64,000 bases of DNA, taken from positions 64,001-128,000 of the IMG/VR virus record IMGVR_UViG_3300020190_000007; one strand, given 5' to 3'. This document shows positions 6,855 to 19,004 of this stretch, in pieces; within the stretch, counting starts at the first letter, position 1, and each line of letters starts with the position of its first letter. The translations under genes were made by a program, and so were the position numbers. The notes beneath the pieces are model-generated. The model was not told where the DNA came from, did not search any database, and worked only from the letters and a program-made list of their open reading frames with translations. This stretch comes from a virus.

Positions 6855-7167
6855 AATATAGATTATATAATTCTATACTTCTTTTATAATCTTGTAAAGA
6901 CGTTGTAAGAGGAAAGGGTACTCTAATAACAGTATTATCAGGTATTTCAAATTCAATACTTCCCGCCGTTGGATTTGCCTGTAATATTAACCATCCAAAC
7001 ACTGGTGAACCATAATAATCTTGCGATATTTTATCAAACCTATCTCTACCCTTTTTATAAAACATATATCTATCCGAAGATTTTATTGGGATTTCAATCC
7101 CTGGTACAATCCTAAATTTACCGTCTTCAATAAAAAACTGATATCTATCAAAATACTGTCTACTCAT
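6841..7167 (-). CDS. Baseplate wedge gp53/tail protein X-like (LysM-fold) protein
   Basis: DRFDKISQDYYGSPVFGWLILQANP...IPDNTVIRVP is the typical LysM/gp53-like pattern; synteny. Confidence 0.75.
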   Translation of the reverse strand: MSRQYFDRYQFFIEDGKFRIVPGIEIPIKSSDRYMFYKKGRDRFDKISQDYYGSPVFGWLILQANPTAGSIEFEIPDNTVIRVPFPLTTSLQDYKRSIELYNLYYGEQ

Positions 7168-10100
7168 TATTGTGGTCTATAATAATTTAATTTATCTGTA
7201 ACTTCGTTTGATGTTGAAAAGATTTGGTTCGCTTCATCTATTATTGTTTGGTTTGTTTCATCTGTTGTGGATGAAATTCCAAACTTAATTTCTTTATCGC
7301 TTTTCCTTTTTTTGAATTTTGTTAATTTAAATTTCTGTTCTTCTGGTTTTTCAACAAATTTATTTAATCTTTTTTTCAATTGATTTTTTAAATGGTCTTT
7401 ATATAACAAAGGGTCTTTTAGCTCTGATATAAATGCTTCTACTTTATCGAATAACAATTGTTTCATCATAAATTCAAAATCCGCCGATTGTATTGTTGGA
7501 TTTAAAAATGTAATATTGGTAGATAAACCATCAACTAATTTCGGTGCGTTTGTCTCAATATAATCAACACATGTACTGTATTCGTTATATAACAAATCCG
7601 AAGTAAAACCACTTATTGCAACAGATTTAACAATACTATCTTGTACTGTTGAATCTTTACCATTTTTAATAACAAAATTAACCCTATCTAAATCAGATAT
7701 TAATTGATTTCTTGATTTTTCCAATTCATCCAATATTTGAGTAGAATCGGTGAGTTCATTTATTTTATTTTCAATTATCTCTTTAGTTATAAAATCTTTT
7801 AATTTGACATTTGTATCTGTAAGTATTGAGCCGGTCATTTCTTTATCAAACTCAACCATATTAACTAAATAAGTTGAAGACGAGTCATTAAGAAAATTAG
7901 CCAACCCTGTTTTTAATCCTGATGTATAAACGGTTAATTCTTGTGTCTTTTTATATAAACCAAGTAATGATAATGTTTTACCCGGTGTTGGTGATGTTGA
8001 GGTGTAAATGTCGTATTGATTTATTGGTCTATATTCACCCTTAAATAAAAGAGCAGTAATATCTTTACCGTATTTTGTATAAACTTTGTTATACGTGTCT
8101 TGATACTTATCAAAATAACTTTCTGTTGAGGTGAAGACGGATTTAATTATGTCCGTATATTTTATACTGTTACCATCAAGGGTACCCATATAATTTCCAT
8201 CTTTTACATTTTTAGTATTTTGAGATTGATTGTTTTTGTTAATGGCGTTTGTATAAGTTTTGTTCAAATCTGCTAAAAATTCACGAGTAAATTCTTCAGC
8301 ATTTCTACCTCCAATAGTTTCGTTTGTTGCGATTGACCTCTCATCGTACATTTCTGTGTTTGCAAAGAAATTAGATGATAAGGCGTTTTGTAATCTTTCA
8401 ACAGGTTTAGATAATCCTTGTCCACCAATAAAATTTATAGATAATGTTACCGACGCAATCATAGGTTGAACTCCAATGCCTTCGGGGTTCAAATCAAATA
8501 GTATTTGCCCACCGTCATCATAAGAAATGTTTACATCTCTAATTACTATTTTTGAGTGATAAAAATCGCCAATTCTTAAGACACAAACAGGCGGTGGTCC
8601 AAACGCGGTGTTTCTTGCTCTAACATCTGATTCTTCCGAAATACCTTTAATTGGGATGGTGTCTCCCGGTCTAATACATTGTTGTAAAAATGTAAGTCTA
8701 GCATTTAAACCTTCAGGTGTTGTTGAATGAAATGCTGGATGAAAATATTTTAATTTTTCTTTAAGTGATGAGAAAACAATCGGGTCAGTTTCTTCTAATT
8801 TTTTAAAGTAAAAACATTCGGATAGTGTTTTTGCGATAATTCTTTTTAGTGGGTCAATGGCGGGTTTTCTTGTTGGTGGGTTCACAACAACCTGTCCATT
8901 TTCTTCTATTTTTGTTATAGGTGGTTGTGGTGTTGGTGTATCGGGTTGTTTCTTCTCTGATTTATTATTGTACTTTAAAGACATTGCCGTTTGTCTACAA
9001 TAGAACGCAATTGGTGAGTATTGTTTTAATTTTGGTACTCTAACGAAATCTTTATTAACACAATCTTTATCAGGTTGGGTCCCAGTTAATGTTTCACCAT
9101 AATTGACCGATTCTACAATAATTTTAGTATCATGTTCAAATCCAAAATCTTTTGTATTATACTCTTTTAATATAACAATCGGTTGTCCTTGTTGAATTAT
9201 TTCTTTATCGTTTTCAGAGTTATCTTTGTTTACTAAATTTAAATTTTCTGGCCATTTTATTTGCCATTCTTTTTTTCCTCCGACAGCCGATAATCTATCA
9301 AAAATATCTTGAATTACGGAGTGACTTCTTCTTAGTGATAATCTTTCGTTGTAATCATTAGTCGCAACTGATGAACATGAAGATAAAATTTGAAATCTAA
9401 TTGTTTCCGCCGTTTTACCAGATATGTCTGATATTAAACTATTTAAACTAGATACGTATTTATTAAATGACACATCAGCTTGGTCAAAATAATCACCGAT
9501 TTTTGTTTTTTGAGCATCAATGTCGGATTGTGTTATAACGTGATTAGCATCACCAAAAATAAAAGATTTTTCTGTTTTTACTTGAGTGTCTGTTTGAGAC
9601 AAACCAGTTAAAGTATTTAACGCGGCACCTAATTCATCAATATAAGCTTGTTTTTGGCCTTTGTAATCGTCGTATAATTCTGTATAATTTTTTGTGGTAT
9701 CAAGGTCTAAACTTGGTCCCGGTCTATCATTTTCATACTTTAATTTAATTATAACCTCATCAACAGGTTTAGAATCTGCTTCGTTACCTTGTGTTGTCGT
9801 GTTTGTTGGTGTTGTCTCTGTTGGGTACTCAGTGGTTACCTTATATTGTTTGATAGTTTCAGGGTCTTGTCCTTGATTTAATAAACTTTGAATCAGTTTT
9901 ATATCGTTTGTATCTAATTGAGTAAATCTTCTAATTAATTCGTAGAAATCCAATTCCTTACAACCAGCAAAAAAAGCGTTGATATAATTTTCAGATTCTT
10001 CCTCTGACATTCCTTTGAAAAGTTCTCTCACTAATAAATTTAAGATACTCGGGTGGTCAACAACAACCTTAAATGATAATTGCCCACTTCTTGATGTGTC

Positions 10101-12014
10101 TTGATATGTATATATTGGTTCGGGTCTACCCAAAAAAGTATTGTCTTGCCATCTCGCTTGGTTGTTTTCACTAATCTTTAAATCGTATGGTGGAAACCAC
10201 ATAACCCTACCCCCATTGTTACCTCTTTCACAAAATGGTAAATCATTGTATGTAAATCCTGGTGTATTTGATGTTCTCCATGCTAAGTTTTCAATTGAAA
10301 ACATATATTTTTTAGCATAAAATCCATCACCCGTTCCGACACCGTTTGGTGTTTCAAATATATTTGTTGAGTTTTTAGACCCAAATGAATTTTTAAAACT
10401 ATTTTTTGCATCATAGTTTCCGCTTGATATAGGTGCAATATTAATATTATACGGTCTACTATCACCACCCATTACACTATCATCGAACTTTCTAATATTA
10501 GCGGTTCTTTTCATTGTATCTGAATAGTTCATATAGGACCTATCTTTAGTCCAAACACGACAATATTCAGCTCCTGTTTCTTGTTTATACTTATCAACAA
10601 ACTTAATTGCGGAACCTCGTGACAACATACTATCACCCTCTTTAAAGATTCTACTGGTTTGGTCAATAACGTTACCAACATGTGTTCTTGTTGCTTGACC
10701 ATCTTTAGGCATTGAATCCAATATTTCTTGAGTTTTACCTAAAATTGAATCTTCTCTAAATCCGTATTTTGTTGAAATTGAATTGTTATAATCGTTACTT
10801 TCTCTTGATTGGAATTCCTCGTTCCATAATCCAATCTTATTCTTTGAGTTTTTACTAATCCACGTAAGTTTACCACTAATTGGTCCACCTTGGGAAATAT
10901 TTCTTTGTCTCTCAAATAAAGCGGCTTGTACCGGGTCAAACATTAAACTTAAGAAGTAACTACTTTTAACCATGTTGTCATTAAAATCTGACATAGTATA
11001 TTTTACGTCTTCCGCTCTATCGTCTCCAATATAAGCAACACCTTTTGGTGCTTCAAGTCCTAAAAAGTTTTTAATTCCACCGGCAACATTGTTTGCAAAA
11101 TTAAAAAGTTTTGATGATTGTTGTGACCTTGCTGTTGTTGTGTAATTTGGTGCGTATGTTGAATATGATAATTGGTCAAACAAAATTTGTTTCTGACCCT
11201 CACCTAAGTATTCAACCATTAAGTCAGATGGTTTTCTACCTAATTTTGGTCTTCTTTGAATACCAACTAAACTACCTAAAACACCTGTTACATCTTGTAA
11301 TATCGCACCCGCTTCGGTTTTTGGTGTCGGTCTATTTACAATAGGGTTTCTTGGGTTGCTTAAATAATCTCCTGGTATTTCACTAAATGGAAATTCAATA
11401 CCCGCAACCGTTTGGAGAAAATCTACACCTTTACCTAATAAACTTTTAGCAACAGTAATTTTATAGTTTTTTTCAATTAGAGGTTCTCTTCCTGTAACTA
11501 TGTTTATCGCTGTTGCGATGTTACCATCCAATGCGTCAAGTATTCTAGCCCTACCTAAAGTTGCTGATTCTAAATTTTGTTGTAGTCTGGCTAATACAGG
11601 ACCTTGTTTGTTTTCTCTAATATTTTGTGTAGCAAATTTCATTAACCTCGAATCGTCATCGAAGTTTTGACCCGCCATAATACTAACTAAATTAGTTGTT
11701 TGGGGTTCAAACGAATTAATATAACCCGCAGATAAAATACCACCATTTAGTTGTGATAAAGTTGGTAAAGACGTGTTTGTGTATTCCTCAATAGTGCTAT
11801 TTGGTGGAATATATAGGTTAATAAAATTTTGACCAAAGTATACCGACCAATTTGTTTTAACATCACCAGGGTCAACATTAGCAAAATTGTTTAGATTTTG
11901 AACAACGTAATTTGTATCAGTAAACGTTTGAGGTCCATTGGGTCTGTTTAGGGTTTTTGAAATTAAAAAATCTCTAAACGCTTTGGTAGTATTAAAATCT
12001 AAATATGTTGGCAT
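7167..12014 (-). CDS. Large baseplate/tail-tube initiator-like protein with an inserted OmpA-like domain
   Basis: FLGRPEPIYTYQDTSRSGQLSFKVVVD and PPPVCVLRIGDFYHSKIVIRDVNISYD are tube-initiator-like; YNERLSLRRSHSV...NYGET is OmpA-like; follows the TMP gene. Confidence 0.6.
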   Translation of the reverse strand: MPTYLDFNTTKAFRDFLISKTLNRPNGPQTFTDTNYVVQNLNNFANVDPGDVKTNWSVYFGQNFINLYIPPNSTIEEYTNTSLPTLSQLNGGILSAGYINSFEPQTTNLVSIMAGQNFDDDSRLMKFATQNIRENKQGPVLARLQQNLESATLGRARILDALDGNIATAINIVTGREPLIEKNYKITVAKSLLGKGVDFLQTVAGIEFPFSEIPGDYLSNPRNPIVNRPTPKTEAGAILQDVTGVLGSLVGIQRRPKLGRKPSDLMVEYLGEGQKQILFDQLSYSTYAPNYTTTARSQQSSKLFNFANNVAGGIKNFLGLEAPKGVAYIGDDRAEDVKYTMSDFNDNMVKSSYFLSLMFDPVQAALFERQRNISQGGPISGKLTWISKNSKNKIGLWNEEFQSRESNDYNNSISTKYGFREDSILGKTQEILDSMPKDGQATRTHVGNVIDQTSRIFKEGDSMLSRGSAIKFVDKYKQETGAEYCRVWTKDRSYMNYSDTMKRTANIRKFDDSVMGGDSRPYNINIAPISSGNYDAKNSFKNSFGSKNSTNIFETPNGVGTGDGFYAKKYMFSIENLAWRTSNTPGFTYNDLPFCERGNNGGRVMWFPPYDLKISENNQARWQDNTFLGRPEPIYTYQDTSRSGQLSFKVVVDHPSILNLLVRELFKGMSEEESENYINAFFAGCKELDFYELIRRFTQLDTNDIKLIQSLLNQGQDPETIKQYKVTTEYPTETTPTNTTTQGNEADSKPVDEVIIKLKYENDRPGPSLDLDTTKNYTELYDDYKGQKQAYIDELGAALNTLTGLSQTDTQVKTEKSFIFGDANHVITQSDIDAQKTKIGDYFDQADVSFNKYVSSLNSLISDISGKTAETIRFQILSSCSSVATNDYNERLSLRRSHSVIQDIFDRLSAVGGKKEWQIKWPENLNLVNKDNSENDKEIIQQGQPIVILKEYNTKDFGFEHDTKIIVESVNYGETLTGTQPDKDCVNKDFVRVPKLKQYSPIAFYCRQTAMSLKYNNKSEKKQPDTPTPQPPITKIEENGQVVVNPPTRKPAIDPLKRIIAKTLSECFYFKKLEETDPIVFSSLKEKLKYFHPAFHSTTPEGLNARLTFLQQCIRPGDTIPIKGISEESDVRARNTAFGPPPVCVLRIGDFYHSKIVIRDVNISYDDGGQILFDLNPEGIGVQPMIASVTLSINFIGGQGLSKPVERLQNALSSNFFANTEMYDERSIATNETIGGRNAEEFTREFLADLNKTYTNAINKNNQSQNTKNVKDGNYMGTLDGNSIKYTDIIKSVFTSTESYFDKYQDTYNKVYTKYGKDITALLFKGEYRPINQYDIYTSTSPTPGKTLSLLGLYKKTQELTVYTSGLKTGLANFLNDSSSTYLVNMVEFDKEMTGSILTDTNVKLKDFITKEIIENKINELTDSTQILDELEKSRNQLISDLDRVNFVIKNGKDSTVQDSIVKSVAISGFTSDLLYNEYSTCVDYIETNAPKLVDGLSTNITFLNPTIQSADFEFMMKQLLFDKVEAFISELKDPLLYKDHLKNQLKKRLNKFVEKPEEQKFKLTKFKKRKSDKEIKFGISSTTDETNQTIIDEANQIFSTSNEVTDKLNYYRPQ

Positions 12015-12042
12015 TTACATTATAAATAGAAACTTTTTAATT

Positions 12043-14004
12043 TTAATTAAATTGAGGTGGCAAGGTAAAAGATGTGTAATCTAATTGTGAAGGTGTAACC
12101 GTTTGACGCATTTCATTTACCACTGATGGACTTTTATACATTTCCCGAACAACCGCATCCAAAACAGGACCATTTGTTTTAAAGTTATGTTCGTGTTTAT
12201 AATTAACCACTGCGGCCGTTTGATTTGAGTTTTGATTATTGGTATTACCTTTTAATTTATTTTCCAAATCAGATTCACTTACACCCATACTTTTAGCAAC
12301 CAAAGCTTTAGCGGGTGCAACTGCTTCACTAACCATCTTAGAAAATAACTCTTCGTCCGTTTTTTGTAACCCACCTAAACTTGTTTTTTCTTTTAAATTT
12401 TCAGATAACTCTAACCCTTCAATGTATTTGTCAAATTCAGCTAAAGGTTGTCTTATTGTCGCGGCCGCTTGTACCTTAGCAACTGTTAATAATGCACTTA
12501 TGTCTTTTTGCATATTTTGGGTTGCGGTATATTGGTCTCTTGCAATATCTTCAACAGACATATCTTCAAAAGCTTTTTGGTTCTCTAATAAACCTTTTGC
12601 AATTGTTGGACTTAATTCATCTAATGCAACTTTAGTATCCTGCAATCCTAATTCTTTTGCCAAGGATTGAGGGATGTCAATAACCATTCTACCACCCTCC
12701 ATTTTAGAGATGTTGGTTAAGAACTCTTTTTCTTTTTCGTCAATTTGTAGACCTGATGATAACAACGCGGTTGCTGCTGACGACCTTTCCGCAGCTTTGA
12801 TTGCGGTTTTAGACATCTCTTCCATACTCATACCCATTTGGTCCGCTAATGCTTTAGATTTTCTAAGATTAGCTCCTGTGATTTCAAACCTACCTAATTC
12901 AGTATTATATGTGGCTAATGAACCTGCAACACCTATCATAGCATCTTGTAATCCACCAGCATCGTTGGTCGCCATATACATTAATTTTAATGGGTCATTA
13001 AAGTCACCAATAGCGCCTCCTATAGCTTGTAATTCAGCAGATAACGCAATTGCTTGGTCCGGGTCAAAAAGTTTTTCCGCCATTGTTTTAACCTTTTCAA
13101 TATTCATATTAAATTCAATAGACTTCTGAACCATTCTGGTTAATCCCTCAACACCATTTTTAAATCCAATGGTATTTAATTTGTCCATATTAGCACCAAC
13201 ATCCGCCACTACTTTTCTTGCATTTAAACCAAGAGTTAATGAACTTTTACCCGCTTTGTCAATTTCTTTGATTGCATCTTTTGCACCAATACCTATTTTG
13301 TCAAAACTATCTAACGCGGCACCCAATCTATATAAATCACCATAAAATGCTCTTGCTGTTTTTTGAGATTCTTGTAAAACATCTTTACCGAATGTTGTCA
13401 TCTTACCAGTTTGTTCAACCATTTGTACTGAATAATCTTTCACATCCTCAAAACTAAATCCCATGGCGGTTGCGGCTGGTAATGTTTCAAATATATTGTT
13501 TCTAAATTGTCTCGATAATTCACCGGTTAAACCAAGTTCAGAATTAATTTTATTTCTTAATTCCACTTCTTGTTTTTGTATTTTTTCCAATTCTTTACCG
13601 AGAAAAGACACCATTTCACTAGTTCCTTTAACACCTAATTGAACCATAAAATCAGGTAGATTTTTTGATTCTCTCGCTATTTTACCTATTGTTTCAGATA
13701 TGGTGCTAAATTGAAATACAGTATCTTTTTGTAATGATAATGATGAAACAGGATTTGAATACCCTAAGTCCGCAATGTCTTGTGTTTTTAGTAAGTCGGT
13801 TGCATAAGACGCTGTTTTACTACCCGCACCTCCTGTGTTCCCTCCGCTTGATGGTTCTTTTTGGTTATAAAATGACCAATAATCATCTACTTTACCCATT
13901 AAAGAACTATTATTCTGTACTGATTGCAATTTTAAGAACTCGTTTTTGAATTGAGTATAATTTAAACCTGCTCTTAGTTTGGATACCTCTTCATTAATTG
14001 TCAT
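12043..14004 (-). CDS. Tape measure protein
   Basis: 653-aa Ala/Gly/Leu-rich helical protein after tube and chaperone genes; KALADQMGMSMEEMSK-type repeats. Confidence 0.75.
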   Translation of the reverse strand: MTINEEVSKLRAGLNYTQFKNEFLKLQSVQNNSSLMGKVDDYWSFYNQKEPSSGGNTGGAGSKTASYATDLLKTQDIADLGYSNPVSSLSLQKDTVFQFSTISETIGKIARESKNLPDFMVQLGVKGTSEMVSFLGKELEKIQKQEVELRNKINSELGLTGELSRQFRNNIFETLPAATAMGFSFEDVKDYSVQMVEQTGKMTTFGKDVLQESQKTARAFYGDLYRLGAALDSFDKIGIGAKDAIKEIDKAGKSSLTLGLNARKVVADVGANMDKLNTIGFKNGVEGLTRMVQKSIEFNMNIEKVKTMAEKLFDPDQAIALSAELQAIGGAIGDFNDPLKLMYMATNDAGGLQDAMIGVAGSLATYNTELGRFEITGANLRKSKALADQMGMSMEEMSKTAIKAAERSSAATALLSSGLQIDEKEKEFLTNISKMEGGRMVIDIPQSLAKELGLQDTKVALDELSPTIAKGLLENQKAFEDMSVEDIARDQYTATQNMQKDISALLTVAKVQAAATIRQPLAEFDKYIEGLELSENLKEKTSLGGLQKTDEELFSKMVSEAVAPAKALVAKSMGVSESDLENKLKGNTNNQNSNQTAAVVNYKHEHNFKTNGPVLDAVVREMYKSPSVVNEMRQTVTPSQLDYTSFTLPPQFN

Positions 14005-14947: not shown

Positions 14948-14983
14948 AAAGGTCTCCTTTTGAGAGACCTTTTATTGACAGAT
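14948..14983. terminator. Intrinsic terminator after the tail tube gene (possibly bidirectional)
   Basis: AAAGGTCTC-loop-GAGACCTTT inverted repeat with A/T tracts. Confidence 0.75.
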
Positions 14984-14997
14984 TTTTTATTATTTGA

Positions 14998-15486
14998 TTA
15001 GTAAACTAAAATACATCTATCCATTCTTAACGAACATGTGATAGATGCAATATCATCTCTTGAATAATCAAGTTCGTTAAAGTTTAAGTCGGTTATGAAA
15101 GAACCTTGAAGTATCCATTTTTCAACCACAACCCCCGTTGGGTCTAACATCTCTAATTCAATATCCTTTTTATAACCAGCTGCGTAACCCATACGACCTG
15201 TTACTGATTCGGCGTGTAGACGGAACCATTCCATCAACGCTTGTGACGCTGAAGGACCAATTGGGTCTTTGAAGGTTACTCTTATTTCACTCCATTCAAA
15301 TCTACCAGCAACATATGTTGAGGTGTTTATAAAAGGAATTGCAACTGAATTTATTTTTGCGCTTGGTCTTGCACTTGATGTTACATACCATTCATTTATT
15401 CCTAATGATGAAGGAAATCTAAGTATGAATCGGTTAACTCTTTTCGGTTCGTAAGGAACCGGCATTTTCATTAATAAATCTGCCAT
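14998..15486 (-). CDS. gp19: Tail tube protein (T4 gp19-like)
   Basis: YEPKRVNRF, SARPS, YVAGRFEW, GYAAGYKKDIELEMLDPTGVVVEKWIL; next to the sheath gene. Confidence 0.9.
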   Translation of the reverse strand: MADLLMKMPVPYEPKRVNRFILRFPSSLGINEWYVTSSARPSAKINSVAIPFINTSTYVAGRFEWSEIRVTFKDPIGPSASQALMEWFRLHAESVTGRMGYAAGYKKDIELEMLDPTGVVVEKWILQGSFITDLNFNELDYSRDDIASITCSLRMDRCILVY

Positions 15487-15609
15487 GTCAATATTTGTTT
15501 TTTATTTTTTTTATTTTTAATCTTTCTTATAAATATGTTGTATATGAAAAAACAAAAAAAATCTTCTCAATACTTGATTTTGTGAAAATTATTTCGTATT
15601 TTTTCCATA

Positions 15610-15726
15610 CTAGTACTAGATGCTAGTAAATTAAGAACTAGATTAAAGAAACTAGAATAACTAGAAAGAAATAAACTAGATAAAAATAAACTAGAACTAG
15701 AACTAGAATACTGGTGCATATACTGG
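15610..15726 (+). repeat. Irregular array of 10 CTAG cores (7 AACTAGA) plus 2 ACTGG variants
   Basis: CTAG at 15610, 15616, 15623, 15638, 15652, 15661, 15676, 15691, 15697 and 15703 in a non-coding gap. Confidence 0.9.
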
Positions 15727-15786
15727 GTAATTTATAATTTTATTTTTTTTATATTTAGTAGTTCCGTAGGTCACACTATATTATAA

Positions 15787-15802
15787 TGTTCCACGTGGAA
15801 CA
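15787..15802. promoter_or_regulatory. parS: parS-like palindrome TGTTCCACGTGGAACA
   Basis: Perfect 16-bp palindrome (18 bp with flanks) matching the chromosomal ParB/Spo0J site pattern TGTTNCACGTGNAACA. Confidence 0.75.
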
Positions 15803-15803
15803 T

Positions 15804-15833
15804 AAAATAGGGAGGGTTTCCCCTCCCCTTTTT
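15804..15833. terminator. Bidirectional intrinsic terminator after the sheath gene
   Basis: GGGAGGG-TTTC-CCCTCCC hairpin with T tracts on both strands. Confidence 0.8.
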
Positions 15834-15834
15834 A

Positions 15835-18690
15835 TTAGATATCATCAAATGATGCTCCTGTTGGTGTAATTATGAACTCAACATCTATGAATTCTAGAGC
15901 TCTTGTTGGTTTGATATAAATCTTACCTCTCAAAGTATTAGAGTCAATGTCTTCTGGGTCGTTGGAAACCGTAACACGGAATTCATATAAACCCCTTTCC
16001 CTTTTAATTGCATCTAATATTGGGTTAACCAATCTCAAGAATTCATTACGAACTTGTTCGTCATTTTGTTCGAATAACAATCTTACCGCTACTGCCGAAA
16101 TTAATTTTCTAGCCCTTAACAATAATCTTCTTACGTTAATTCTATCCAACGCCGATTCACGAATTTGAAGGGTTTTGTTACCCCATATAATTGTGCCGGT
16201 ATCTGCGTATGTTGCTATTGGGTTAATTCTAGCTTTGTATAGGTCATCTCTTTCATCTAAAGTTAATTTCTTAACCGCTTTAATTGAATTTACTAATCCT
16301 CTTGAATAACCCGCTACCGCAAACCAAGGGAAAGATACGTTATCGGTTAACGCAATATTTCTTAAAACTTCACCAGTTGGTGGTAGATATATTTGTACGG
16401 CGTTGTCTACGTCTCTAACTTGAATCCAAGGCCAATAAACAGCTGAATAATTACTATCAATCGACACACCGTCCAAAGCGTCTATTACTTCATCCGCAGT
16501 ACTGTAGTTTGGTGGTGAAATTACGTAAAGAGAATCCGCTCTATCGTCTTCAATCATATCAATTGCATATGACGTTAAAGAACTATTGTCATAGAAGTTA
16601 ATACCCGGTGTTGCAAAAATGTTTATATCAACTGATTCAGGATTTGAGAAGGTGTCAATACCTTGGGCGTAAGCGTAGTAATCAGAGTTTCCCGATACCG
16701 TGCTAAACACGCCTCCATTATTGGTATTACCACTTGTGTAAGTGTTTTTACCAAAGATGAATCCATCACCGTAGGTTCTCACATTTCTATAGATATCCCA
16801 ACCATCAAATCCTCCAGCAGCGGTAAAAGTGAACTTACGATAATTGATGTTTGTCAATACGTTACTAACTCCACCTGTTTGACCCTCTAAATCATACGAT
16901 GTAGTTAAGAAAGTTGTTCCTGTGATTGTAGACGCGTTTGTTGATAAGTGGAAACCCTTAGTCGTACCAGCCGCTGAAGTTCCTTTGAATTTAAATAAGT
17001 CCCTATCGTATGTTACTTTATTGGTTGGACTTGATAAACCAAAGTATGTTTTTCTCACTTTATCACCTGAAGATAAAACCGGTGTTCCATCTGCGAGATA
17101 AGATTCGGTATCACCAGCATTAAAGAATGTAGTTTTGTAAATCACAGAACCCAAAGTGTCTGAACCGAAAGTACTGTTATTCGGGAATCCTTTAAATCCG
17201 GCGGGATATGCGTCAACGGGGTGATTATCAGACATTAACAGCATAATGTATTTTGAACGTATTTCATATTCACCATCGGATGTACCAACCTTTTTAGCCA
17301 CATAATTAGGTAAATCTGGATTCATACTACATCTACTAAATTTTTCAAGTACGACAATATTATTGTCTGTATCGTTAAAATCTCTAACAATTAAGTCAAA
17401 GTCACCCGTGTCTATATTGATATTAATAATAGAAATTTTTACCTCAAAGTTCGCTGCGTCCCCGTCTGATATTGTAATTACATCAAATAAATCATTGACT
17501 TCACCACCTCTTACTTCAGAAACAACAGTTGGTGATATTGGAGTATCATAAGACGTTTTAAAGTCATTACCAACAGTTTCATAAGATTCTGTTAAGCTTA
17601 AACCTCTAATATATCCTTCTTCATAAGCTCTTAACAAATAATTTGGATAAGCTTCAAATACATAAATAGGAACGTCACCTTTTAATTTGTCATAAACATC
17701 TGTACCAAATACTTTTGTTACATATTTTGATGACGACGCATCCATACTACAAGTAAATGATTTTGCTCCGCTCGTTGAACCTGTAATATTCACTGTAAAT
17801 TCAGCTAAAGGATTTGTAGTAATTCCTGAACCTGTCACAATGAAATTAGCATTCCCCGTGGACTCTAAGTTTAAAGTTTGTTGGCTGTAAGAGCCTCTTG
17901 GTCTGAACGCTAAAACAACCTGATTATTATATGCCGTATTGAGTGTTGCGTTGTAGGTGAACTTAGTCACATCAAATCTACTTGCACCACTGTTGTATAC
18001 AAATAAGTAAGAATACACTTCAGAACCCGCGGAATTTACTAAAACATTATACCATTCCTTATTGTTATTATTATTTGCGTTATTTAAACCTGTTAGAGGA
18101 GAAAGTTCTTCAAGTGATGCGGTTTGACCAGAGGTTTGTGAAGTTGGTACTTCACCCATAACAAACCACTCTCCATGATTAGATGATGTGTTACCACTAA
18201 AGTTTGCCACAATATAATCTGTAATATAATTTCCATCTACAGATATTTTATCTGATAGTTCACTATAAATCGTACTTGCCGTGATTGTTGTGGTCTGTGC
18301 TGACATTGTTAAACCCGTGGTTGTACCACTAAGCGATTCCAATATAACACCAGCAATTGTCTTAACCCCGTAAGTTTTAACAGGTAAGTAACCCGTTAAA
18401 CCCAATATTTTTGTTACAAATAATTGGTTTGATTCTTCTAAATAAGATTTTGCAAAATAAGGTAATTCATATTTTGGGTTATTGTTGTTGTCTTTTAAGG
18501 GACTTGTTCCTCCAAAATATGACTTGAATTCGTCAAAATTAGTTATTAATAAAGGTTCAAAAGCGGGACCCTTTAAGGTTTCACCCACCAAACCTAATGT
18601 GCTGACACCAACACTTTGTGCCACGAATGTTAAGTCTTTTTCGGATGTGTATACACCCGGAGATACAAAAACTCTATTTGAATTTGCCAT
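15835..18690 (-). CDS. gp18: Contractile tail sheath protein (T4 gp18-like)
   Basis: SPGVYTSEKD, YSAVYWPW, PWFAVAGYSRG, INPI, WGNKTL, LDRINVRRLL, IKPTRALEFI. Confidence 0.95.
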   Translation of the reverse strand: MANSNRVFVSPGVYTSEKDLTFVAQSVGVSTLGLVGETLKGPAFEPLLITNFDEFKSYFGGTSPLKDNNNNPKYELPYFAKSYLEESNQLFVTKILGLTGYLPVKTYGVKTIAGVILESLSGTTTGLTMSAQTTTITASTIYSELSDKISVDGNYITDYIVANFSGNTSSNHGEWFVMGEVPTSQTSGQTASLEELSPLTGLNNANNNNNKEWYNVLVNSAGSEVYSYLFVYNSGASRFDVTKFTYNATLNTAYNNQVVLAFRPRGSYSQQTLNLESTGNANFIVTGSGITTNPLAEFTVNITGSTSGAKSFTCSMDASSSKYVTKVFGTDVYDKLKGDVPIYVFEAYPNYLLRAYEEGYIRGLSLTESYETVGNDFKTSYDTPISPTVVSEVRGGEVNDLFDVITISDGDAANFEVKISIININIDTGDFDLIVRDFNDTDNNIVVLEKFSRCSMNPDLPNYVAKKVGTSDGEYEIRSKYIMLLMSDNHPVDAYPAGFKGFPNNSTFGSDTLGSVIYKTTFFNAGDTESYLADGTPVLSSGDKVRKTYFGLSSPTNKVTYDRDLFKFKGTSAAGTTKGFHLSTNASTITGTTFLTTSYDLEGQTGGVSNVLTNINYRKFTFTAAGGFDGWDIYRNVRTYGDGFIFGKNTYTSGNTNNGGVFSTVSGNSDYYAYAQGIDTFSNPESVDINIFATPGINFYDNSSLTSYAIDMIEDDRADSLYVISPPNYSTADEVIDALDGVSIDSNYSAVYWPWIQVRDVDNAVQIYLPPTGEVLRNIALTDNVSFPWFAVAGYSRGLVNSIKAVKKLTLDERDDLYKARINPIATYADTGTIIWGNKTLQIRESALDRINVRRLLLRARKLISAVAVRLLFEQNDEQVRNEFLRLVNPILDAIKRERGLYEFRVTVSNDPEDIDSNTLRGKIYIKPTRALEFIDVEFIITPTGASFDDI

Positions 18691-18827
18691 TTTTAAATTG
18701 TTTGGTTAATTAATTTTATTTCTTTATCAATAAATATCTTTGTTTTTAGCAAAGATTCCCTTGATTTTTTTAAAAATGGTACTTATGGATACTAATTTAT
18801 ACTTTAATATCTATATTTATCTTTATC

Positions 18828-19004
18828 ATGAAAAACTCCTCGAAAAATATAAAGGTTAGTGAAAATCATCATAAAATGTTAAAAGAACATTGCGATAAAA
18901 ATGGATTAAAAATTTACAAGGTTGTTCAAAAATGGATTGATGAGTTTTGTAAAACAGGAAAGGTGAATGATTCACCTAAGAAAAAAGACCTATACGGGGA
19001 TTAA
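18828..19004 (+). CDS. Ribbon-helix-helix DNA-binding protein, 58 aa (below the ORF-track cutoff)
   Basis: MKNSSKNIKVSENHHKMLKEHCDKNGLKIYKVVQKWIDEFCKTGKVNDSPKKKDLYGD shows beta strand, helix, G-turn, helix; TATTTATC upstream; divergent from the sheath gene. Confidence 0.7.
   Translation: MKNSSKNIKVSENHHKMLKEHCDKNGLKIYKVVQKWIDEFCKTGKVNDSPKKKDLYGD

Follow-up and report, generated by a model that had tools for sequence, protein, structure and literature searches.

A host-type parS palindrome and a predicted antisense unit in the conserved sheath-tube spacer of a phage family from lakes: a possible composite cis-acting module

The DNA analysed here, called the window throughout, is a stretch of 64,000 nucleotides that corresponds to bases 64001-128000 of a 170,860-bp IMG/VR virus record, itself about 55% complete by CheckV. 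Related genomes span 233-334 kb, and one of these, of 310,542 bp, has terminal repeats. Two minus-strand tail genes, those for the tail sheath (15835-18690; PHROG tail sheath, E 4e-59) and the tail tube (14998-15486; PHROG tail tube, E 2.5e-24), are separated in the window by a spacer that occupies 15487-15834. An earlier note on this DNA had described a gap of about 350 bp between the two genes, and the measured length is 348 bp. The note had listed a CTAG array, an A/T run, a palindrome, a bidirectional terminator and the hexamer TTGATT in this spacer, all of which lie where it had placed them, and had read the whole as a phage replication origin coupled to a loading site for host ParB. Megablast returned no close cultured relatives. 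The best match to the sheath protein, at 33% identity, comes from Microcystis phage Mel-JY01, whose own sheath-tube gap is only 94 bp long.

A search of IMG/VR with the tube protein found about 600 contigs at 85-99% identity, and a conserved 25-nt pattern from the spacer led to 120 more IMG/VR stretches, all of them sheath-tube regions except for three chance matches. The comparative set consists of 120 distinct spacers, of which 110 measure 250-470 bp. Across these roughly 120 spacers the order of parts is invariant. On the gene strand it begins with a GC-rich hairpin (the terminator), followed by a 16-mer resembling parS, one repeat arm (for example ACCCAGTAT), a core that is AT-rich, variable in sequence and equipped with CTAG or CCAG boxes, the inverted arm TACTGGG, and a highly conserved block of about 35 bp, AAAAAAYTACGAAAA..TTGAYAnnnTCAAG. 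A variable stretch comes next, then ATATTTATAAG, which contains the late promoter motif TATTTATA, and finally an A-rich leader, lacking a Shine-Dalgarno sequence, that ends at the ATG of the tube gene. The alignment of sheath-tube gaps from related phages, which had been proposed as a check on the locus, therefore finds the position of the palindrome, the arms, the block and their order kept across about 120 variants. No conserved open reading frame is present in the spacer; the longest spacer ORFs encode 0-66 aa, and their frame shifts relative to the conserved blocks. A 50-aa ORF at 15567-15719 (minus strand), in which CTAG would be read as Ser-Ser, was rejected as coding, as it is not conserved.

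The palindrome TGTTCCACGTGGAACA, at 15787-15802, is a perfect match to the host-type parS, TGTTNCACGTGNAACA. It is the sole site in the window within three mismatches of parS and the sole perfect copy in the 170,860-bp record, while the 288-kb relative G001 (92% complete) has just one site within two mismatches, also in the spacer. A parS-like element with at most three mismatches occurs at the same position in 96 of the 120 spacers, against 0.7% for random sequence of equal composition. Six of these elements are perfect and 20 have one mismatch, so that 26 of 120 spacers are within one; 16 of 120 lack the element. It is degenerate in many lineages, with a variable centre and a less conserved right half; common variants have a CACAAG centre or a TGC left arm. 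At each of the 14 positions that parS specifies, the consensus of the family agrees with it. Among 61 Flavobacteriaceae genomes scanned, 53 have one to three parS matches, usually two about 1.9 kb apart, and TGTTCCACGTGGAACA is the commonest spelling; a reversed control gave 0 matches. One Flavobacteriaceae MAG, G004, which holds a related phage contig, encodes a true ParB (113 bits), and TGTTCCACGTGGAACA occurs in it twice without mismatch. The perfect parS palindrome claimed in the earlier note is thus upheld, and its spelling equals the dominant chromosomal parS of the Flavobacteriaceae. Judged by its letters, the site in the phage spacer is an exact copy of the chromosomal parS of the predicted host family. 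The predicted host belongs to the Bacteroidota, and the phage leaders, as noted for the tube gene, are without Shine-Dalgarno sequences. For bS21 phages, among which the present one may belong, a paper reports hosts in Flavobacterium or the Bacteroidetes.

The cognate ParA and ParB genes of a self-contained ParABS locus were not found on the element. The ParB_N profile matched nothing above its cut-off in the record or in relatives 76-100% complete, where a GmrSD_N-like ORF gave 13-15 bits only, and no CbiA-type ParA was matched in the record or in the near-complete relatives G001-G003. The only ParB_N-like ORF, considered as a possible phage ParB, was rejected as a weak GmrSD_N-like protein. 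In G001 the ORF with weak GmrSD_N and ParB_N matches has 251 aa (G001:C1:220900-221655, equivalent to L083:958-1713, minus strand); its N-terminus resembles a ParB/Srx-fold nuclease, and it is not a partition ParB. The ParB-like partners of phage T-dioxygenases were likewise set aside, as they have no DNA-binding domain and no bearing on the site.

Because the phage lacks both ParA and ParB, its palindrome is most likely a borrowed site for the host's ParB. Precedent exists in phi29 and Nf, described in PMC2731898 as virulent Bacillus phages whose host-type parS sites are bound by Spo0J. According to the same source, which cites Meijer et al. 2005, phi29 has five such sites and uses them through the host Spo0J, which helps to bring the phage genome into the prespore. 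Like phi29 and Nf, the present phage has a chromosomal-type parS with neither ParA nor ParB and shows no sign of a partition operon, and the partner must therefore be a host protein. There are differences. The present phage has one site against five in phi29; the site has around it a conserved spacer that also contains repeats and a predicted antisense unit; many relatives have a degenerate version of the site or have lost it; and binding by ParB is here predicted from sequence. Furthermore, the predicted host family does not sporulate, so entrapment in a spore cannot be the purpose.

The exact 18-mer ATGTTCCACGTGGAACAT is found in at least 120 IMG/VR stretches, where about one is estimated by chance. 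Of 119 loci examined (L222-L341), eight fall in this phage family, and at least 111 viral contigs outside it, with GC contents of 26-71%, have the 18-mer. Several of the loci outside the family have a second parS nearby. Long open frames cover about 90% of the sequence of these loci, and 40% of the sites lie outside such frames. No chromosomal ParB homologue was found within the examined loci outside the family.

The spacer also receives insertions, and is a hot-spot for them in L133, L175, L139, L145, L131, L031, L032, L037, L072 and L078. In five relatives extra genes lie between the terminator and the palindrome, in antisense orientation in four. Genes for YkuD L,D-transpeptidases (L133, L175, L139) and for an SGNH/GDSL hydrolase (L145) are all antisense. 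The YkuD genes have TATTTATA late promoters of their own; the hydrolase gene has no promoter motif of its own and starts 6 nt past the palindrome. Homing-endonuclease-like inserts, encoding Zn-finger/REase_MTES_1575 proteins of 500-550 aa, are present in several relatives. Genes of 0.7-2 kb are thus tolerated between the parts of the spacer.

These inserts bear on a different reading of the palindrome, in which it would be a mere hairpin or the site of some unrelated protein, similar to parS by coincidence, in a spacer that serves as a recombination or insertion hot-spot created by homing-endonuclease traffic. The centre of the palindrome does vary in a loop-like manner while 5-bp arms are retained, one lineage lacks the palindrome entirely, and homing-endonuclease-like genes sit in the spacer of several relatives, as such a reading would have it. 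Coincidence does not readily account for a consensus that equals parS at every specified position in the spelling of the host family, for an identical 18-mer in over a hundred viral stretches where chance predicts roughly one, or for the conservation of arms, block and order over the whole comparative set. We regard this reading as quite improbable.

Between the conserved block and the palindrome lies the repeat region. The CTAG array (15609-15707, plus strand) holds ten CTAG and seven AACTAGA and is a lineage-specific, expanded form of the CYAGTAT repeat core. The ten CTAG copies fall within 97 bp (15610-15706), where about 0.09 would be expected, since the whole 170,860-bp record contains 156; the seven AACTAGA copies, all on the plus strand, fall at 15636-15707. 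Direct counting thus reproduces the ten CTAG and seven AACTAGA previously given for about 100 bp. CTAG is depleted in the window as a whole (45 observed, 105 expected from shuffles). The next-largest cluster in the record has at most four copies, and the array is single-copy here as well as in G001. Copy number is 7-10 among the closest relatives (96-97% identical over the C-terminal 200 aa of the sheath, 98-99% in the tube protein), 0-11 per spacer in ordinary relatives and 0-33 family-wide, and the unit, spacing and orientation change too. The extreme is L078, with the largest CTAG array seen in the phage family: the first 420 nt after its sheath stop contain about 15 copies of a 16-bp unit, CTAGTATCTAGGATCT, which bring the spacer to 33 CTAG. 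No paper on CTAG arrays in phages was found in the literature.

On the parS side the array is followed by two ATACTGG boxes in direct repeat (15708-15727, plus strand; CCAGTAT on the gene strand), which represent the family-wide arm. Most relatives keep this arm in the form ACCCAGTAT, and it pairs with its inverted partner across the core; one double compensatory change is seen, in L046. Between the repeat arms and parS is a run of 30 bp of pure A/T, read directly at 15728-15757, one base longer than the almost pure tract reported before at about 15729-15757. The corresponding region is AT-rich in relatives and variable in sequence.

The most conserved non-coding sequence of the spacer is a block at 15565-15608 on the plus strand, pointing away from the tube gene and into the repeats. 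It contains TTGATT at 15574-15579 and CGTATTTTTT at 15595-15604, or, in promoter terms, TTG (15574-15576), 20 nt, and TATTTTTT (15597-15604). The block is unique in the genome, and its pattern is confined to the sheath-tube spacer in IMG/VR, the three chance matches aside. Sigma-A promoters of Bacteroidota have a -33 TTG and a -7 TAnnTTTG (PMC9723704), and in Flavobacterium the latter box sits at -12 to -5 (PMC9723704), on which basis the predicted start is A15609. Where such a promoter has its two elements about 19-21 nt apart, TTG, N20 and TAnnTTT are present in 115 of the 120 spacers, in the form TTG-N20-TAnnTTTT; the spacing is 20 in 97 of 98, and a purine stands at the predicted +1 in 108 of 115. 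Nine positions of TTG, TA and TTTT are about 96-100% invariant within a 31-nt block. Two features depart from Bacteroidota sigma-A promoters: the last base of the -7 box is T in all 115 relatives where the consensus has G, and four further spacer positions are invariant beyond TTG and TAnnTTTT. For both reasons the block might rather be the site of a protein.

At the opposite end is an intrinsic terminator hairpin (15802-15835, stem-loop 15809-15828), which has an A-run at one flank and a T-run at the opposite flank and is called on both strands, in agreement with the bidirectional terminator of the earlier note. Its stems differ in sequence among relatives with pairing retained. The A-run before the hairpin, which would be the U-tract of a plus-strand RNA, is near-universal. 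The gene-strand T-run is missing in at least two lineages, and in L041 and L060 a terminator is called on the antisense strand only.

The promoter-like segment is thus real and conserved, and together with the terminator it bounds a discrete unit, a predicted antisense non-coding transcript of about 225 nt (15609-15833, plus strand) that would include the repeats, the A/T tract and the parS hairpin. At the level of signals this is what a non-coding RNA gene should present: a promoter-like block of its own, a terminator of its own and no conserved ORF. It also resembles the sigma-A sRNA genes of Bacteroidota, with TTG and TAnnTTT separated by 20 nt, a purine at the start and, further downstream, a terminator with a U-tract, and it differs from known sRNA genes in belonging to no Rfam family and in being recognized from sequence signals alone. 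Rfam scores in the spacer did not exceed 20 bits, and across the whole window no model reached its gathering score. The antisense orientation of the YkuD and hydrolase inserts, and the hydrolase gene's lack of a promoter motif, speak for the unit; the late promoters that the YkuD genes carry speak against it. The predicted antisense RNA folds with a z-score of -2.7; across relatives the repeat domain has a median z of about -2 to -2.7, a moderate value that is not strand-specific. Where the palindrome departs from Watson-Crick pairing, the pair is mostly G.U on the antisense strand (43 cases vs 6), with few independent events behind this count. RNAalifold found no consensus for 108 antisense sequences, as the variability of the core prevents their alignment. 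Overall the evidence for an RNA structure is weak. A comparison of minimum free energies between strands was rejected as a test, being confounded by composition, and a census of Bacteroidota promoters in the genome was too noisy for defining early promoters. We consider that the plus-strand transcript is probably made, by a modest margin, and a discrete antisense non-coding unit over repeats and palindrome, as predicted from these signals, is the best-supported additional reading of the spacer.

The same folding data raise the matter of the other strand. A read-through sheath-tube mRNA could form a long hairpin that is processed in RNase III-like fashion and so sets the ratio of sheath to tube. 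RNA of the repeat domain is more stable on the gene strand than on the antisense strand in 86 of 103 relatives, the whole spacer gives z = -5.2, and where the gene strand has no terminator, co-transcription of the spacer is unavoidable. The energy difference, however, is expected anyway of a U/G-rich strand; in most lineages transcription ends ahead of the element and begins again at TATTTATA beyond it; and the conserved block is left unexplained. Such processing is very unlikely to be what the spacer is for.

The same parts, differently assembled, underlie the origin reading of the earlier note, in which transcription from a promoter would enter a series of initiator sites and an AT-rich tract suited to unwinding, and parS would lie beside them as it does on chromosomes. 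T4 oriF and oriG and the T7 primary origin consist of a promoter followed by an AT-rich unwinding element, and T4 origins within late-gene regions are known. The spacer is similar to these in that a conserved promoter-like element in a late-gene region faces the repeats and the 30-bp pure A/T tract, which would suit unwinding; short repeats border the AT-rich core in most relatives, and the module is single-copy in near-complete genomes. It differs in that a terminator closes the antisense unit, the skew signal is absent, and neither the number nor the phase of the repeats is kept. Cumulative GC/AT skew, proposed as a check, has no inflection at the locus in the record or in G001, and neither shows a switch of strand composition there. 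The nearest change of slope is 3 kb away, at a switch in gene direction, and in G001 the spacer lies inside a block of 58 co-directional genes. (Skew was itself rejected as a test for an origin, since it follows transcription and gene direction.) The proposal that the CTAG boxes are iterons, conserved sites for an initiator, does not hold for repeats that range from none to 33 copies with varying spacing and orientation and that some relatives do without. Relatives also carry genes inserted between the parts, and no initiator gene was noticed beside the spacer. The claim of a phage replication origin is thus unsupported; we judge it unlikely, and present evidence does not justify annotating the spacer as an origin.

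An alternative for the repeats is an operator or centromere-like array on DNA, bound by a phage protein. The candidate protein is a ParG/omega-like ribbon-helix-helix (RHH) protein of 58 aa, encoded at 18828-19004 on the plus strand, divergent from the sheath gene and 3 kb from the array. Its ORF is conserved in every relative whose locus reaches that region and has weak Pfam matches to ParG, RepB-RCR_reg and Omega. The structural model is an extended strand-helix-helix with a core pLDDT of 87-90, and a fold search with it returned almost only RHH structures, ParG first, with 1p94 and 1irq among the matches. By predicted fold, then, the element encodes a protein of the RHH DNA-binding type. 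Upstream of the gene are TATCT/TATCC boxes about 10 bp apart. Also in this region, a palindrome ATCTTTG-N7-CAAAGAT at 18736-18756, conserved in nearly all relatives, adjoins the late promoter motif of the sheath gene, which is TATTTATT here and TATTTATA in most relatives; the palindrome is probably an operator.

ParG and omega proteins bind arrays of short repeats, as in ParG-parH of plasmid TP228 and the omega heptad arrays of pSM19035. Here, too, boxes of 6-7 bp separated by AT-rich spacers form an array, and the RHH gene, of ParG/omega-like type, is not far away. TATCT is enriched 3.6-fold, and TATCTAG about 200-fold, on one strand of the sheath-tube spacer, and the array of L078 is built of TATCTAG units. 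The RHH protein would then regulate divergent promoters in the spacer or form a hybrid partition site with host ParB, and the conservation of its gene, the ParG and Omega matches, the ParG-led fold search and the shared boxes agree with this. Three things set it apart from TP228 and pSM19035: an ATPase of the ParF/ParA type was not found, 3 kb separate the array from the RHH gene, and the link between boxes and protein is one of motif resemblance only. Two or more TATCT boxes are present in just 26 of 108 spacers, boxes in the window are mostly TTCTAG rather than ATCTAG, the CbiA-type ParA partner was not found, and the RHH sites are more simply explained by autoregulation and control of the sheath promoter. 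The array as operator or centromere for this protein is accordingly doubtful, and the modelled RHH protein as a binder of the spacer is a lead.

The last part of the spacer belongs to the tube gene. The late-type promoter motif TATTTATA at 15528-15535 (minus strand) precedes an A-rich leader, 15487-15527, and is present upstream of the tube gene in all relatives. The motif occurs 11-50 nt upstream of about 30 genes, tail genes among them, always in gene orientation, and this recurrence identifies the copy at 15528-15535 as the tube gene's own predicted late promoter. A T4-type late promoter on the plus strand, TATAAATA at 15528, was rejected; it is TATTTATA read on the gene strand. TATTTATA often stands just 3-10 nt before the ATG, giving very short leaders (for example window 7167-14004, 15528-15535).

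Taken together, we favour, at a strength somewhat short of probable, a composite cis-acting module in which a host-type parS, an antisense RNA unit, a repeat element and a late promoter are combined. Host ParB would load on phage DNA at the spacer parS, as suggested by the lack of ParA and ParB in the phage. As with Spo0J and phi29, the segregation machinery of the host might then place or carry the phage genome; alternatively, hundreds of phage copies might soak up ParB from a host with only one to three sites of its own. Host RNA polymerase would start at the Bacteroidota-type plus-strand promoter (TTG 15574, box 15597-15604, start about 15609) and yield an RNA, non-coding and about 225 nt long, that runs antisense to the direction of the tail genes. 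That RNA would pass through the CTAG/CCAGTAT repeats and the A/T tract, cross the parS palindrome, which may form a hairpin in it, and end at the bidirectional terminator. The CTAG boxes would be the slippage-prone core of a family-wide inverted-repeat element, which might work in RNA, by forming a long imperfect hairpin, or in DNA, as an array of operators; the specific job of the boxes is inferred. The tube gene, as motif recurrence shows, would be served by its own late promoter TATTTATA.

A bolder version joins several of these elements in a hybrid, borrowed centromere. The single parS would load clamps of host ParB on a lake phage of about 300 kb, and the adjacent repeat array, bound by the RHH protein and traversed by an early antisense transcript, would tune the loading. 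The phage could then persist as an episome, in a carrier state, in slow-growing Flavobacteriaceae, or could strip ParB from the one to three sites of the host during lytic growth. We consider this version improbable.

These phages, with about 600 related contigs in IMG/VR, are abundant in lakes, and none is cultured. If host ParB does load on them, borrowing of the host's centromere machinery of the phi29 type extends to non-sporulating Bacteroidota and to huge phages, which suggests a way in which carrier states might arise or host segregation be sabotaged. With the exact 18-mer in more than 110 unrelated viral contigs, an orphan host-type parS may be a common, little-described feature of phages. 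The predicted antisense RNA and the repeat array make a defined experimental target of 350 bp once a host-phage pair exists.

Two further observations concern the tube gene itself. A strong intrinsic terminator (14948-14972, minus strand) lies directly 3' of it, so the gene is bracketed by its own predicted promoter and its own terminator. Within its first 15 codons is a conserved hairpin at 15444-15462, CCGGTTCC..loop..GGAACCGA, of which the stem is kept and the loop varies among relatives; it receives a terminator-like call on the plus strand in the window, L081, L041 and L060.
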